In this document: positions 52,565-64,000 of the stretch, piece after piece
How positions within the stretch are numbered: position 1 is the stretch's first letter
How the letters are laid out: every line of letters begins with the position of its first letter
Source of the DNA: Candidatus Bathyarchaeia archaeon
GTDB taxonomy: Archaea; Thermoproteota; Bathyarchaeia; Bathyarchaeales; Bathycorpusculaceae
Assembly: GCA_030019335.1 (NCBI GenBank)
Contig: JASEET010000005.1
Coordinates: 25,962-89,961 of the forward strand
Length of the DNA: 64,000 nt
Reading direction: 5' to 3'
The notes under the pieces: model-generated
Seen by the model: only the letters and a program-made list of their open reading frames with translations
Told to the model about the DNA's origin: nothing
Databases searched by the model: none
Made by a program: the position numbers and the translations under genes

Positions 52565-53719
52565 TTACATTGTTTTCATTAGTCGGTTTATTATTGTCAG
52601 TTTCTGCATCTCTGTTGTTCCTTCGTATATTTCTGTTATTTTTGCACAGCGATGGAAACGCTCAACATGGTAATCTGCCAGATATCCGTATCCACCATAA
52701 ATTTGAATTGCCTCATCCGTAACTTCCATGGCAACTCTGCCCGCAAAAGCCTTCGCCATAGAAGTTGCCATCGGGTCAAGTCTTCCTTGGTCGAACAACC
52801 AAGCCGCCTTATACGTTAACATTCTTGCAGCCTCGATTTTAATCGCCATGTCAGCCAGTTTGAAGGATATTCCTTGAAACTTAATTATAGGCGCGCCGAA
52901 CTGTTTTCTGGTTTTAGCATATTGAAATGCACGTTCAAAGGCTCCCTGAGACATGCCAACAGCTTGGGCGGCAACCGCAATTCTTGTTTCATCGAAAAGT
53001 TCAAGAGCGTAATAGAAGCCCTTGTTCAGTTCACCTACTAGGCTTGTTTCAGGCGCTTTGACATCGCTTAGTGCAAGGGAGCCCGTTATACATGGTTTGA
53101 TGCCCATTTTTCTTTTCAGCTTTGTTGCCTCCAGTCCCGGTGTGCCCTTCTCCACGAGGAATATGCTCTGACCCCTATGCGAAGGCGTGGCATTCGGGTC
53201 TGTTTGGCAAAGCACTATAAATATATCCGCCACCGGGGCGTTTGTTATGAACTCTTTGCTGCCGTTAATGACCCATTCGTTTCCACTTTTTACTGCTGTT
53301 GTGTCCATGCGTGTTATGTCGCTTCCATGTTCAGGCTCTGAGAAGGCTGCCGCTGATATTGTGTCGCCTCTGGCCAAAGGCGGAATATACTTTTTCTTCT
53401 GCTCTTCGTTTCCATGCTTTAACAGGACATCAGGAATCATCAAGTTTCCAAGCGACACTGCAGCTCCAAGTCCCGGGTCTACTCTACACATCTCTTCAAC
53501 CACTATGCAGTCTTCCAAGAGGCCGTAACCTTGTCCATCATACTCTTGCGGAATCCTCATGCTCGTGAATCCTAGCTTAGCTGCCTTTTTGTAGAGTTCC
53601 ATAGGAAACTCTTCTTTTTCATCAAGCTCCAAAGCCAGTTCTGGTGTAAACTCTTTTTCGCAGAATTCCTTAATGGCTCTTTTAATTTCCTTTTGTTCCT
53701 CATTTAATTCAAAATGCAC
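52565..53719 (-). CDS. acyl-CoA dehydrogenase (short/medium-chain, butyryl-CoA-DH-like)
   Basis: AFSEPEHGSDI, WVINGSKEFITN, C-terminal YEGTTEMQ. Confidence 0.92.
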   Translation of the reverse strand: MHFELNEEQKEIKRAIKEFCEKEFTPELALELDEKEEFPMELYKKAAKLGFTSMRIPQEYDGQGYGLLEDCIVVEEMCRVDPGLGAAVSLGNLMIPDVLLKHGNEEQKKKYIPPLARGDTISAAAFSEPEHGSDITRMDTTAVKSGNEWVINGSKEFITNAPVADIFIVLCQTDPNATPSHRGQSIFLVEKGTPGLEATKLKRKMGIKPCITGSLALSDVKAPETSLVGELNKGFYYALELFDETRIAVAAQAVGMSQGAFERAFQYAKTRKQFGAPIIKFQGISFKLADMAIKIEAARMLTYKAAWLFDQGRLDPMATSMAKAFAGRVAMEVTDEAIQIYGGYGYLADYHVERFHRCAKITEIYEGTTEMQKLTIINRLMKTM

Positions 53720-53746
53720 TTATTACATCTCCTTTTTCGTTTAGAC

Positions 53747-54730
53747 CTATGCTTTTTGTCCTTTCAACTCATATATTTTACCTTTCAACGCGGGCACAAC
53801 CTTGAATAAATCGTCAACAATGCCGTAGTCGGCGAAGCTGAAGATGGGCGCGTTTGGGTCTTTGTTTACGGCTATGATTAAGTCTGAGTTTTTCATTCCT
53901 AGAACATGCTGAAAGGCTCCGCTTATTCCAAGAGCAATGTAAACTTTTGGCTTTACGGTTTTTCCAGAAGTGCCCACTTGACGGTCGCTTGGAAGCCATC
54001 CCTTATCCACGATTGGACGTGAGCAAGCAAGCACTCCACCAAATGCCTTTGCCAACTCTTCAACCATTGGCATATTGTTCTCGTCCTTTATTCCGCGTCC
54101 AATGCCAATGAGCACATCTGCGGCTGTTATGTCAACTCCTCCTGGAGGCGGCAAAACATATTCGATGAAACGTTTCTCGGTTATCTCTTCGGAAAGCGGA
54201 GAGGGCGTTTCTATGATTTCTCCGTTCATGGTTGGTTTTTGAGCTGCGAAGGTTGCTTGGCGGACAGTAACAATGTAACTTTTAGACTTTCGAACTTTTG
54301 CCCTAACGTTCACTTTGCCACCGTACATTTGCCGCGTTACAATAAGTGCTTCGTTTTCAAACTCTAAGTCTATGCAGTCCGTTGCAAGCGGCAGATTCAG
54401 ATCAACTGCAAGGCTTGGAGCTAAATCCACACCAAAAGATGTGTGCCCTATCATGGTTAGCAACGGCTTATGCTCTTTGATTAGATTTGATAACACTTTC
54501 TGGTACGCTTCGGAGTTAAAGTTCTCCAATTTCGCATCTTCAATTAGCAGAACCTTTTTCGCGTATTCTGAAAGGGTTTTGGCATGTTTCTTAACGTCTT
54601 TGCCCAACAGAACCGCTGTCAAATCCATGTTTGTTTTTTCGGCTAGTTCTTTGCCCTTTGTCAGCATTTCGAAGGCTATGTCTCTGATTTGTCCCTGCCT
54701 ATGCTCAGCCAGAACAAAGATTTCCTTCAT
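53747..54730 (-). CDS. etfA: electron transfer flavoprotein alpha subunit
   Basis: PKVYIALGISGAFQHVLGM...IAVNKDPNAPIF. Confidence 0.9.
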   Translation of the reverse strand: MKEIFVLAEHRQGQIRDIAFEMLTKGKELAEKTNMDLTAVLLGKDVKKHAKTLSEYAKKVLLIEDAKLENFNSEAYQKVLSNLIKEHKPLLTMIGHTSFGVDLAPSLAVDLNLPLATDCIDLEFENEALIVTRQMYGGKVNVRAKVRKSKSYIVTVRQATFAAQKPTMNGEIIETPSPLSEEITEKRFIEYVLPPPGGVDITAADVLIGIGRGIKDENNMPMVEELAKAFGGVLACSRPIVDKGWLPSDRQVGTSGKTVKPKVYIALGISGAFQHVLGMKNSDLIIAVNKDPNAPIFSFADYGIVDDLFKVVPALKGKIYELKGQKA

Positions 54731-62168: not shown

Positions 62169-63000
62169 AATTGTAGCCAAAAAAGAGTTGGCTCCAAAAA
62201 TAAAGTTATTCGAAGTTTACGCTCCGGAAATAGCGGAAAAAGCCAAACCCGGACAATTCATAATCCTCATAATAGACGAGAAGGGTGAGCGGATACCATT
62301 AACAATAGCTGGTTATGACAGGAAAAAGGGTACAGTAACCTTCGTTTTTAACGAAGTTGGAAAGACAACAAAGCAGCTTGGTCTCCTCAAAGAAGGAGAC
62401 AGTATAACCAACATTACTGGGCCTCTTGGGAACCCCTCTGAAATTAAGAATTTTGGTAATGTTCTATGCATCGGTGGCGGAGTTATGATTGCCCCAATGC
62501 TTTTGCAAGTTAAAGCCTTAAGGGAGGCTGGCAACGCCGTCACAACTGTTATTGGGGCGAGGATAAAGGATTTACTCTTTTTTGAAGAGGAGATGAAAGC
62601 CTTAAGCCACAAGTTTTATGTGGCAACAGATGACGGTTCAAAAGGCTACGAGGGCTTAGGATTTCTAAAAGAGCTTATAGAGAAGAATAGGTTTGACCGT
62701 TGCATTGCTATGGGACCAGTAGTTATGATGAAAACTGTCTGCGAAATCACTAAGCCGTTCGGCATACCAACAATTGTGACTTTGACGCCTATAATGGTTG
62801 ATGGAATGGGAATGTGCGGCGTCTGCAGAGTTACAGTTGGTGGGCAAATGAAGTTTGCATGTGTTGATGGACCAGAATTTGATGGGCATTTGGTGGATTT
62901 TGATGGATTAATTAATAGGCAGCGAATGTTTCTGCCAGAAGAGAGGCTTAGCTCCCTATTGTGGGAAAAGCTTGGAGGTTGCGGTTGTGGCGGAAAATAA
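62161..63000 (+). CDS. NfnA/SudB-like FAD/NAD(P)-binding, [2Fe-2S] subunit
   Basis: [25 protein letters not shown]...PGQFIIL..., C-terminal MGMCGVCRV...[12 protein letters not shown] 62161 overlaps the upstream stop (the track start 62053 lies inside the previous gene). Confidence 0.8.
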
Positions 63001-64000
63001 GCCTACACCAAAAGTTAAGAAGAAAGCCGTGCCAATGCCTAAACAGAAGCCAGAAGTACGCAGACGCAACTTTAACGAAGTTGCTTTAGGTTATACTGAA
63101 GAACAAGCAATAGAAGAGGCAAGCCGCTGTTTACAATGCCCAAAACCCCAATGTGTCCCAGGCTGCCCCGTGGAAATCGACATCCCAGCTTTCATCAAAC
63201 TTATCAGAGAAGGAAAATTTGACGAAGCTGTAAAGAAGATTAAAGAGAAAAATAGCCTTCCAGCAATTTGTGGACGTGTCTGCCCACAAGAAGAACAATG
63301 CCAAATGAACTGCGTCCTCGGAAAAGCTGGAGACCCAATAAACATTGGCAGATTAGAAAGGTTTGTAGCCGACTGGGAAAGACAAAAGGGCGTTACAATA
63401 CCAGAAAAAGCTCCAGCAACAGGCAAAAAAGTAGCAATTATAGGAGCCGGACCAGCCGGTTTAACAGCTGCAGCAGACCTAGCCAAACTGGGACACGAAG
63501 TTGTGATTTTTGAAGCTTTGCATTTGCCTGGCGGCGTCTTGGTTTATGGAATTCCAGAGTTCCGCTTGCCAAAAAGCATTGTTCAGGCTGAGGTTGATTA
63601 CATTAAGAAGTTGGGTGTGGAACTGCGTTTGGGTTATTTGATTGGTAGAATACACACAATTCCAGAACTACTTAAGGAGGAAGGATTTGACGCAGTTTTC
63701 ATTGGAACTGGCGCTGGCTTGCCCCAGTTTTTAGGTGTGCCGGGCGAAAATTTGGGCGGAATTTACAGTGCAAACGAATTTTTGATTAGGGTTAACTTGA
63801 TGAAGTCCTATGCATTTCCAGAATATGACACGCCAATAAGAATTGGTAGGCATGTGGTTGTCATCGGCGGCGGAAATGTTGCCATGGACAGCGCCCGTTC
63901 AGCATTGCGCTTAGGCGCTGAGGAAGTCTGCATTGTTTATCGTCGTTCACGCGAAGAGATGCCAGCCCGCAAAGAAGAAATAGAAAACGCTGAAGAAGAG
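62987..64000 (+). CDS. NfnB/SudA/GltD-like FAD, 2x[4Fe-4S] NAD(P)H oxidoreductase subunit (3' end outside window)
   Basis: Own translation from GTG 62987 (GGAGG 9 nt upstream): [67 protein letters not shown]...[16 protein letters not shown]...[12 protein letters not shown]. Confidence 0.85.

Follow-up and report, generated by a model that had tools for sequence, protein, structure and literature searches.

Gene content and layout of the cluster

The window analysed here, a 64,000-nucleotide stretch of contig JASEET010000005.1 from a Candidatus Bathyarchaeia archaeon, ends in a cluster of eleven redox genes (Table 1). A gene for the heterodisulfide reductase (Hdr) flavoprotein HdrA lies divergent from one for an HdrD-like iron-sulfur protein. 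On the minus strand HdrA is accompanied by the two subunits of an electron transfer flavoprotein (ETF) and an acyl-CoA dehydrogenase (ACAD). On the plus strand the HdrD-like protein is followed by two mini-proteins with four cysteines each, a thioredoxin reductase (TrxR), a polyferredoxin in which ferredoxin (Fd) and MvhD domains alternate, hereafter the tandem adaptor, and the two subunits of NfnAB. The features of these proteins and their recurrence in relatives point, tentatively, to an HdrA-centred electron-bifurcating system in which ETF and acyl-CoA, instead of a disulfide, would accept the high-potential electrons.

A first-pass annotation, made from the sequence alone, had proposed the eleven-gene order and all of the domain assignments. 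Both held up in Pfam and NCBIfam profile searches, in which the MvhD-type domains of HdrA and of the adaptor also pass (FlpD, Table 1), and a separate gene caller returned the same gene calls on Logan contig L001. The last three genes overlap as annotated, by 8 nt (adaptor and nfnA) and 14 nt (nfnA and nfnB), and the two mini-protein genes overlap by 10 nt. Contig L001, identical to the window, supplies the full-length NfnB of 470 residues; the cluster runs about 400 nt beyond the window end. A basic open reading frame of 77 codons (59402-59635) overlaps mini-protein 1, is absent from the independent gene calls, and is probably spurious. AT-rich TATA-like boxes, spotted by eye in intergenic gaps, are not counted as evidence.

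Table 1. Features of the redox cluster, in window coordinates.
Feature	Position	Strand	Basis
Acyl-CoA dehydrogenase (ACAD, short/medium-chain type)	52565-53719	-	Pfam Acyl-CoA_dh_N, _M, _1
EtfA (large ETF subunit, without ferredoxin domain)	53747-54730	-	Pfam ETF, ETF_alpha
EtfB (small ETF subunit, probably not of bifurcating type)	54731-55519	-	best solved relative 1o94_C
HdrA (type Ia / HdrA2-like), 787 aa, predicted bifurcating-FAD site	55833-58196	-	HdrA2 model, 847 bits
MvhD/FlpD domain at HdrA C-terminus, Cys-free (cluster-less)	55884-56237	-	Pfam FlpD, E = 3e-20
Divergent intergenic region hdrA/hdrD, 66 nt	58197-58262	.	direct sequence reading; promoter elements inferred
Soluble HdrD/EtfD-like Fe-S protein, 380 aa	58263-59405	+	Fer4_8 + two CCG domains (HdrC-like 2x[4Fe-4S])
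Mini-protein 1, 51 aa, 4 Cys, pI 4.05	59545-59700	+	ORF translation
Mini-protein 2, 52 aa, CxxC...CxxC, acidic tail, pI 4.05	59691-59849	+	ORF translation; orthologues
Thioredoxin reductase (TrxR), low-molecular-weight, NADPH type	59900-60844	+	TIGR01292
Tandem adaptor Fd(2x[4Fe-4S])-MvhD([2Fe-2S])-Fd-MvhD, 402 aa	60960-62168	+	FlpD in two stretches, E = 2e-36
NfnA (small subunit: FAD, [2Fe-2S], NAD side)	62161-63000	+	PRK06222, 396 bits
NfnB (large subunit: 2x[4Fe-4S], bifurcating FAD, NADPH side)	62987-64000, cut by window end	+	TIGR01316, 653 bits

HdrA and its cluster-less MvhD domain

The core of HdrA aligns end to end with solved methanogen HdrA proteins (5odc_A and 8rvu_a, 606-627 bits). 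Residues K409 and E356 are considered critical for the bifurcating FAD of HdrA (PMC12054007); the equivalents of both, K410 for the former, are conserved here, and all 28 cysteines of the Fe-S clusters are conserved in 38-42 of 42 orthologues. With a TrxR-fold FAD domain, an N-terminal cluster, and both inserted and C-terminal ferredoxin domains, the protein is by its sequence a member of the HdrA family. Its best NCBIfam match is the HdrA2 model, at a score below that model's cut-off of 1100 bits.

The first-pass annotation described this HdrA as fused to an MvhD-type domain. The fusion is real and the domain is a clear MvhD homologue, yet none of the four [2Fe-2S] ligand positions still has its cysteine when the domain is aligned to MvhD, and no orthologue (0 of 42) has a cysteine anywhere after HdrA residue 621. 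A type Ia HdrA carries a C-terminal MvhD domain with its [2Fe-2S] cluster, and the protein of this cluster departs from that definition. The cysteines are kept in a paralogous HdrA, 37% identical, that follows MvhG-MvhA at locus L036 of a relative, and a [2Fe-2S] motif is reported in the MvhD domain of Methanosarcina acetivorans HdrA2 (PMC5296606). The loss here, set against retention in both of these proteins, indicates that the HdrA of the cluster has specifically lost its built-in electron relay.

A soluble HdrD-like protein with EtfD-like features

The HdrD-like protein has the Fer4_8 and two CCG domains that had led to its name; it is not, however, a canonical heterodisulfide reductase. 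The N-terminal half is HdrC-like (66 bits), and the best match in the PDB to residues 65-379 is EtfD of Mycobacterium smegmatis (9ojn_A), at 194 bits versus 33 bits for HdrB. EtfD is an HdrD-type enzyme that takes its electrons from ETF (PMC13083937). Hdr catalysis uses one bridging cysteine per CCG motif, Cys81 and Cys234, while in EtfD His583 rounds off the cluster's coordination and renders it non-catalytic (PMC13083937).

The first CCG motif of the HdrD-like protein consists of C152, C187-C188, and C224-P-H226-G227. C152, C187, C188, C224 and H226 are invariant in 47 of 47 orthologues, the CPHG sequence is retained in 44-46 of them, and in 46 of the 47 a glycine, Gly227, occupies the position equivalent to Cys81. 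Compared with the first motif of EtfD, four cysteines and His226 match, with CC in place of CT and G in place of Cys584. The second CCG motif is complete, so that the protein shows one of the two complete motifs (C-X31-39-CC-X35-36-CxxC) that catalytic HdrB and HdrD proteins have. The HdrB model TIGR03288 scores it at 33 bits, versus 337 bits for the canonical HdrB of L036, which has CTGC and CPFC motifs. No hydrophobic segment typical of a transmembrane helix occurs in its 380 residues. Judged from these features, the HdrD-like protein is an intermediate soluble form that lacks both the defining Hdr feature and the membrane anchor of EtfD. The annotation had left the acceptor as a disulfide or acyl-CoA; the CPHG motif and the kinship to EtfD give better support to the acyl-CoA/ETF branch than to the disulfide branch.

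A first CCG motif of SPHC form, with four cysteines plus the histidine, was seen in an HdrD variant of loci L054 and L074 and in a TfrB-like protein of locus L130. At L130 (3040-6328), and also at L128, L142, L146 and L158, the HdrD-like gene is followed on its own strand by genes for TfrA-like (fumarate reductase flavoprotein) and TfrB-like proteins. The TfrB-like protein of L130 has 2Fe-2S and dicluster domains and two CCG domains, the first with the motif C..CC..SPHC. Such neighbours could mark fumarate as an alternative high-potential acceptor, or a thiol/disulfide shuttle.

The tandem adaptor belongs to a small family with interchangeable partners

Both MvhD domains of the adaptor show the FlpD fold with four cysteines for one [2Fe-2S] cluster each. 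All 81 sequences keep these cysteines (C92/C123/C148/C153 and C282/C309/C334/C339) and the sixteen of the ferredoxin domains, and in an alignment of the C-terminal MvhD domain to solved MvhD the cysteines of the two coincide. Four [4Fe-4S] and two [2Fe-2S] clusters are predicted as cofactors of the adaptor.

The adaptor family was searched for among 1.84 billion representatives. One homologue search with the protein of the window gave near-identical Bathyarchaeia proteins only; distant contexts were reached through these representatives and a divergent query. Only 50 clusters (built at 50% identity) were found at E <= 1e-30, about 16 of them with the full tandem architecture, at 35-70% identity. 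Among these divergent members the partner gene that overlaps or abuts the adaptor downstream varies. It is NfnAB in loci of the Bathyarchaeia type (L085, L087), a PF12225 protein (DUF5981), which we take to be of the MetV family, in four others (L082 10001-12800, L083 10001-12767, L084 10001-11823, L086 10001-11808), and an FrhB-like protein in L088 (10001-12962). PF12225 is followed by a methylenetetrahydrofolate reductase (MTHFR) gene in L082 and L083, and stands alone in L084 and L086. The loci of the PF12225 type lie variously beside CODH/ACS, MvhDGA or HdrA-like genes; a complete CODH/ACS cluster stands beside L083, and MvhDGA directly precedes the tandem adaptor in L086. An interchangeable downstream partner is what one would expect of an adaptor able to plug mid-potential flavoenzyme modules of different kinds into HdrA. 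MvhD serves as such a link for Mvh and Fdh, MetFV, Flx and BamGHI. The analogy to Flx/Hdr drawn in the first-pass annotation is strengthened by this family, in which a tandem Fd-MvhD protein is coupled to NfnAB, MetV/MetF or FrhB as input module.

Two further observations concern family members. L086 (3025-5106) has a second tandem adaptor, followed by NfnA only (PRK06222, 364 bits) and HypA/HypB/HypF, without NfnB. Just upstream of the adaptor-MetV-MetF operon of L082 (9319-9715) lie fragments of an NfnA-type protein (DHODB_Fe-S_bind, 74 aa) and of FlpD (57 aa), which may be remnants of a replaced module. Matches of 292-296 residues in L054 and L074 that resembled the adaptor proved to be plain polyferredoxins without an MvhD domain, and were not counted as family members.

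NfnAB, thioredoxin reductase and the mini-proteins

Called NfnAB-like in the annotation, the last two proteins are indeed of that family and most likely, from their sequences, a true Nfn. NfnB matches Thermotoga maritima NfnB (4ylf_B, 613 bits) and NfnA the small subunit of Pyrococcus furiosus NfnI (5jca_S, 311 bits), each over its full length, and both subunits exceed the cut-offs of their models (PRK06222 and TIGR01316, Table 1). An assignment of NfnA as a sulfhydrogenase gamma subunit (HydG) was rejected, at 62 bits versus 396 bits for the Nfn/Sud family.

TrxR passes the equivalog model TIGR01292 (357.6 bits, cut-off 343.45). Its translation shows a CSTC active site and the motif GGGNSA...HRREEFR, in which we take CxxC to be the redox centre and HRRxxxR the NADPH motif. 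The invariant place of TrxR beside Nfn in relatives, documented below, is most simply explained by shared NADPH.

The mini-proteins had been offered as candidate Hdr substrates; no evidence was found for the conserved one, mini-protein 2, in that role. Orthologues of mini-protein 2 lie directly upstream of TrxR in 28 of 80 loci from relatives, some of which have no HdrA or HdrD nearby, and this placement argues that the conserved mini-protein belongs with TrxR. It has about 46-53 residues (e.g. L002 8763-8906, L038 5096-5254) with the pattern CxxCG(R/K)xI(S/T)xEEYExxDGxCxECYE(I/L)EI and a D/E tail; a Pfam search gave sub-threshold matches only. No counterpart of mini-protein 1 was found in the other loci, and it is a paralogue seen only in the window.

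ETF and acyl-CoA dehydrogenase

The best solved relative of EtfB is the ETF beta subunit of Methylophilus methylotrophus (1o94_C, 197 bits), versus 139 bits for the bifurcating Etf of Acidaminococcus fermentans (4kpu_B). Group-2 bifurcating ETFs are marked by RxGV and GxxSPTxV motifs in their small subunit and by RPxFGG in their large one (PMC10734219). At these positions the proteins of the cluster read KTGL, AGSWIKI and RQMYGG (by eye, and moderately reliable), and EtfB is, on its sequence, probably not of the bifurcating type. The top NCBIfam model for ACAD is AcrC (401 bits, under that model's cut-off). The ACAD gene comes after EtfA in relatives too.

Conservation of the gene order in relatives

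A species-level scan, with one genome per species and the polyferredoxin as query, found 182 relatives, of which the best 80 (66-82% identity) were analysed; their synteny was mapped by tblastn with all proteins of the window. All 80 are labelled Bathyarchaeia save L071 (DATGZD010000019.1), labelled Candidatus Sulfotelmatobacter. This locus, and protein P0103, likewise under a Sulfotelmatobacter or Acidobacteriota label, show a typical bathyarchaeal block of TrxR, adaptor and NfnAB at about 69-73% identity, and their sources are probably mis-binned archaeal contigs.

The most constant unit is this block. TrxR lies upstream of the polyferredoxin in 77 of the 77 loci with enough sequence (two TrxR copies appear truncated), and the polyferredoxin is followed by NfnA in 76 of 76 loci and by NfnB in 65 of 65. 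A divergent HdrA/HdrD pair lies upstream of the block in 43 of the 63 loci with at least 7 kb of upstream sequence (68%), and the pairing stays divergent wherever one or the other gene occurs. Sometimes 1-5 kb of unrelated genes (MFS transporter, methyltransferase, AbrB/MazE-like) stand between the pair and the block. The central segment from HdrA to NfnB appears inverted relative to its flanks when L002, L003 and L072 are compared with L005, L014 and L030.

A reciprocal scan of metagenomes with EtfB as query yielded 80 loci at 78-89% identity, 42 of them with at least 5 kb upstream. HdrA lies co-oriented upstream of EtfB in 27 of these 42 (64%), and 26 of the 27 also have the divergent HdrD. 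In seven EtfB-anchored loci only 13-21 nt separate the hdrA stop from the etfB start, a spacing that indicates an hdrA-etfB-etfA operon. The junction in L130, checked by eye, reads TAG-GAGAAAAAACGCC-ATG (13-nt spacing). For the link between HdrA and Etf this EtfB-anchored test is stronger than the synteny anchored on the polyferredoxin.

Recurrence in dozens of related genomes places the arrangement far beyond chance. Neither of the two outcomes that the annotation had named as refuting came about: the MvhD-type assignments pass profile searches, and the genes are syntenic in relatives, in the form of a nested, rearranging neighbourhood. The genes of its 11-kb supercluster recur together without forming one fixed unit. 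A single fixed operon was rejected on account of gaps of 66-313 nt, unrelated insertions, and block inversion in relatives, and the neighbourhood probably comprises five or six transcription units.

Genes around the cluster

To the left of ACAD come genes for a radical-SAM protein and YdjM, followed by a ribosomal-protein/SecY operon, and ACAD is on this account taken as the left edge of the cluster. The operon is an ordinary one (38600-49508 of the window, with S3, L22, L24, S4e and SecY) that lies a few kb upstream of the redox genes. The radical-SAM protein adjoining ACAD (50941-52488) has an HMPTM-type N-terminal zinc ribbon. Many EtfB-anchored loci have a copy of it (76-87% identity) downstream of ACAD. 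The copy adjoins ACAD directly in L092, L108, L112, L141 and L166 and stands at a distance of about 5-8 kb in seven further loci; the left border of the neighbourhood is thus conserved as well. A LeuRS gene and one for a 142-residue protein, found downstream of HdrA in many loci, were treated as unrelated housekeeping neighbours.

Past NfnB, contig L001 (13451-14579, just past the window end) encodes HypA with an Mrp/ParA-like ATPase on the opposite strand. [NiFe]-hydrogenase maturation genes, either HypA with the Mrp/ParA-like ATPase or HypF-HypC-HypD-HypE, recur beside the TrxR-adaptor-Nfn block in L021, L022, L031 and L052 and in the downstream regions of L057-L081. Downstream of NfnB in L036 (13912-20191) stands a complete canonical Mvh-Hdr operon, in which MvhG-MvhA precede a second HdrA, HdrC and an HdrB of canonical type; this bathyarchaeal locus holds the standard Mvh-Hdr in addition to the variant HdrA/HdrD pair. 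The gene order of L069 (11249-17569) is, by clustering, that of L036, and in L087 (17819-21227) the contig ends inside the second HdrA. In L054 (3621-7758) and L074 (4670-8792) the position upstream of TrxR is occupied by a different, co-oriented pair. Its HdrA has 661 residues, no MvhD domain and 46% identity to that of the cluster, and its HdrD-like protein, with the SPHC motif noted above, is 49% identical. The divergent polyferredoxin of 292-296 residues accompanies this pair.

A proposed HdrA-centred bifurcating system and its alternatives

From what is observed, namely the genes present, their cofactor motifs and synteny, and the modular make-up of the adaptor family, we infer complex formation, an electron path, a direction of flow and ETF as acceptor as follows. 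The neighbourhood would encode a modular, soluble, HdrA-centred system for flavin-based electron bifurcation (or confurcation), with the FAD of HdrA as bifurcation site and the fused MvhD domain as an inert relic or a docking piece. The tandem adaptor, translationally coupled to NfnAB, would wire that NAD(P)H-reactive module to HdrA. Free ferredoxin would be the low-potential partner, served by the inserted ferredoxin domain of HdrA. The high-potential arm would run through the HdrC-like and non-canonical CCG clusters of the HdrD-like protein, which would pass single electrons to the non-bifurcating EtfAB and from there to ACAD, with its enoyl-CoA/acyl-CoA couple. The net, reversible reaction would be 2 NAD(P)H + Fd(ox) + enoyl-CoA <-> 2 NAD(P)+ + Fd(red) + acyl-CoA, the net chemistry of Bcd-EtfAB built around HdrA. 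TrxR and the acidic 4-Cys protein would be NADPH-consuming neighbours of Nfn, probably outside the complex. The path is proposed by analogy with class II benzoyl-CoA reductase, whose logic the pieces fit (see below), and we regard it as the best reading, at somewhat less than an even chance.

Several observations weigh against it. The TfrB model, the best NCBIfam match to the HdrD-like protein, scores 179 bits, near the 194 bits of EtfD, and similarity alone on that account does not decide the function of this protein; its second CCG motif is intact, and TfrAB-like genes follow it in five EtfB-anchored loci. About one third of the genomes have the TrxR-adaptor-Nfn block without HdrA or HdrD within 7-10 kb. 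Etf-ACAD is missing from most species-level loci: it occurs in 10 of the 41 that are full-length, nine of these ten being among the 26 with HdrD. In one sub-clade Etf-ACAD and a block of ACS/GNAT and NiFe hydrogenase genes exchange sides of the central segment, which is best explained as block inversion. The loci compared are phylogenetically non-independent. The weakest parts of the model are the presumed contacts, the direction of flow and the energetics of a feed into MvhD from the low- or high-potential arm of Nfn. NfnAB is a free heterodimer in characterised organisms, and HdrA might need no adaptor at all, by analogy with the HdrA2 of M. acetivorans, which oxidises F420H2 without an input module (PMC5296606).

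Three other explanations were weighed. The proteins could act as an Flx-like NAD(P)H:ferredoxin:disulfide oxidoreductase, in which NfnAB and the adaptor feed HdrA and the HdrD-like protein reduces a thiol/disulfide carrier, either a small molecule or a protein, that other enzymes re-oxidise, for example the TfrAB-like fumarate reductase. Flx-Hdr and Mvh-Hdr are established precedents for such an enzyme, and the literature gives the disulfide of bathyarchaeal Hdr as unknown. The complete second CCG motif, the CC pair kept in the first, the rank of the TfrB model, the TfrA/TfrB-like genes of five loci and the adjoining TrxR and 4-Cys proteins are all consistent with it. We nevertheless consider it unlikely: the HdrD-like protein invariably lacks one of the two bridging catalytic cysteines and has the EtfD-type histidine, the TfrB-like protein has itself a non-canonical first motif (SPHC), the mini-protein goes with TrxR and not with Hdr, no DsrC, TusA or CoM/CoB genes were seen in the cluster, and hdrA stands in an operon with etfBA in several relatives. 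A link to hydrogen, with the adaptor bridging an MvhAG-type [NiFe] hydrogenase to NfnAB, HdrA or both for H2-dependent reduction of NADP and ferredoxin, seems very improbable. It is suggested by 21 of the 41 full-length loci, which have within 10 kb either genes for the small and large subunits of [NiFe] hydrogenase or Hyp maturation genes, by the HypA and Mrp/ParA-like genes after NfnB in the source contig, and by MvhDGA directly before the tandem adaptor in L086. No hydrogenase structural genes, however, lie beside the cluster in the window and contig, and a gene for an ADP-forming acetyl-CoA synthetase usually stands between NfnB and the hydrogenase genes. Moreover, MvhG-MvhA of L036 and L069 run straight into the second HdrA and HdrC, and with the MvhD cysteines of that HdrA kept and a canonical HdrB next to it in L036, this is a self-sufficient Mvh-Hdr operon.

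The genes might, finally, form a redox island of independently acting enzymes that are co-located through regulation or descent, a rather unlikely account that we nonetheless take seriously. NfnAB would then be a stand-alone transhydrogenase with a dedicated polyferredoxin, TrxR would use the NADPH made by Nfn, Etf-ACAD would serve beta-oxidation, and HdrA/HdrD would work alone, for instance with F420H2 oxidised directly at the FAD in the manner of HdrA2B2C2. In T. maritima and P. furiosus NfnAB functions on its own, and HdrA2 dispenses with an input module. At least five putative promoter gaps separate the units, and variable nesting, insertions (MFS transporter, methyltransferase, LeuRS) and block inversion also speak for loose association. 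Yet we know of no role for MvhD domains other than as adaptors to HdrA-type proteins, and the adaptor is translationally coupled to Nfn, as its homologues are to MetVF or FrhB. The dead MvhD domain of HdrA itself calls for an external relay, and the reciprocal synteny of Etf with HdrA, together with the gaps of 13-21 nt in seven loci, is likewise difficult to reconcile with independent action.

A stronger form of the HdrA-centred proposal is that the tandem MvhD adaptor hard-wires NfnAB and HdrA into one soluble supercomplex, whose high-potential outlet is an EtfD-like HdrD that reduces or oxidises ETF. We hold this form to be improbable as it stands. If true, a quinone-free archaeon would link NAD(P)H and ferredoxin to acyl-CoA/enoyl-CoA, and perhaps in certain relatives to fumarate/succinate, by an archaeal equivalent of Bcd-EtfAB that is based on HdrA. 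Class II benzoyl-CoA reductase would be the only earlier case of coupled bifurcation modules with transfer from HdrD to ETF, and the "heterodisulfide reductases" of non-methanogenic Bathyarchaeia would gain a physiological acceptor.

Bathyarchaeia are among the most abundant archaea of anoxic sediments and have several Hdr systems, without the heterodisulfide of methanogens; the literature describes the acceptor of their Hdr as unknown. For one such Hdr the cluster offers a concrete candidate answer, ETF and acyl-CoA, possibly fumarate, instead of a disulfide, and it suggests a role for "Hdr" enzymes in non-methanogenic archaea. Behind the hypothesis stand residue-level features open to mutation, the dead MvhD domain on HdrA and the CPHG sequence of the first CCG motif. 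The small family of tandem Fd-MvhD adaptors, with NfnAB, MetVF and FrhB as inputs, widens the modular logic of flavin-based electron bifurcation. Should NfnAB dock to HdrA, two bifurcation sites would be coupled in series, which has so far been reported for one bacterial enzyme only.

Comparison with known systems

Every component of the cluster comes from a known family, and there are precedents for each pairing. In the literature we found no description of this cluster in Bathyarchaeia, of a two-subunit NfnAB translationally coupled to a tandem Fd-MvhD adaptor, of an HdrA whose own MvhD domain is cluster-less, or of a soluble EtfD-like HdrD paired with HdrA and co-operonic with etfBA. HdrA-NfnB fusions have been reported in ANME-1 and Bathyarchaeota. 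In Desulfobacterium autotrophicum, hdrF3 (HdrD-like) clusters with etfBA, and HdrL, an HdrA/GltD fusion, with MvhD.

NfnAB of the cluster resembles the characterised NfnAB/NfnSL enzymes (T. maritima 4YLF, P. furiosus NfnI 5JCA) in that both subunits match at full length and the genes overlap. Those enzymes are free heterodimers that use soluble ferredoxin, whereas here a tandem Fd-MvhD protein is coupled upstream and TrxR is an invariant neighbour. Like EtfD/EMO of M. smegmatis (9OJN), the HdrD-like protein has two cubane and two CCG-domain clusters, four cysteines in the first CCG motif, and the histidine of CPH. EtfD, with the ETF of beta-oxidation as functional partner (PMC13083937), has five transmembrane helices, heme b and a quinone site, while the protein of the window is soluble, is paired with HdrA, and differs at the CT and Cys584 positions as described above. 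The proposed overall reaction, with NAD(P)H, ferredoxin and enoyl-CoA/acyl-CoA, is like that of Bcd-EtfAB; there bifurcation takes place on the FAD of EtfB, whereas here Etf lacks the group-2 motifs and bifurcation would sit on HdrA.

Among Hdr systems, HdrA2B2C2 of M. acetivorans (type Ia) shares the fusion of an MvhD domain to the C-terminus of HdrA. Its hdrA2 is in an operon with a polyferredoxin gene (PMC5296606), and a polyferredoxin gene lies near hdrA here too. The [2Fe-2S] motif, predicted and supported by iron content in HdrA2 (PMC5296606), is missing from the MvhD domain of the cluster HdrA, whose partner is a fused HdrD-like protein instead of HdrB2C2 and for which no CoM/CoB context was seen. 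In HdrABC-MvhD-MetFV of Moorella thermoacetica, as proposed here, MvhD joins a flavoenzyme module to HdrA, and distant members of the adaptor family are translationally coupled to PF12225 (MetV-type) and MTHFR genes; in the cluster the coupled module is NfnAB and not MetFV, and the adaptor is a four-domain fusion and not a single MvhD. FlxABCD-HdrABC of Desulfovibrio and other anaerobes likewise leads electrons from an NAD(P)H flavoprotein through Fe-S proteins and an MvhD-like subunit to HdrA, with bifurcation to ferredoxin. That system has flxABCD beside hdrABC, a gene set different from that of the cluster, and the likeness is functional only: the input is a complete NfnAB in place of FlxA, a single tandem protein would unite the roles of FlxBCD, a fused HdrD/EtfD-like protein whose first CCG motif is non-canonical stands where Flx has HdrBC, and ETF, not the DsrC disulfide, is the proposed acceptor.

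A further comparison is with the class II benzoyl-CoA reductase of Geobacter metallireducens. In this enzyme the MvhD-like BamF links an NADH/ferredoxin module to the HdrA-like, bifurcating BamE, and the high-potential electron of BamE is reported to reach a non-bifurcating ETF, and not a disulfide, by way of BamD, which is HdrD-like and has a degenerate CCG cluster (bioRxiv 10.64898/2026.04.10.717634). The cluster resembles BamDEF(GHI)-ETF in its HdrA-type flavoprotein, predicted to bifurcate, in the MvhD-type adaptor that would lead to an NAD(P)H-reactive and itself bifurcating input module, and in an HdrD-like (or HdrBC-fusion-like) subunit with a degenerate CCG cluster. It differs in having no tungsten BamBC output, ferredoxin being presumed in its place, and in an input of NfnAB (GltD/PyrK type) where Bam has the HydBC-like BamGHI. 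Its HdrA is single with a dead fused MvhD domain, while that of Bam is a fused double HdrA; the adaptor is a tandem Fd-MvhD-Fd-MvhD protein, and the host is archaeal.

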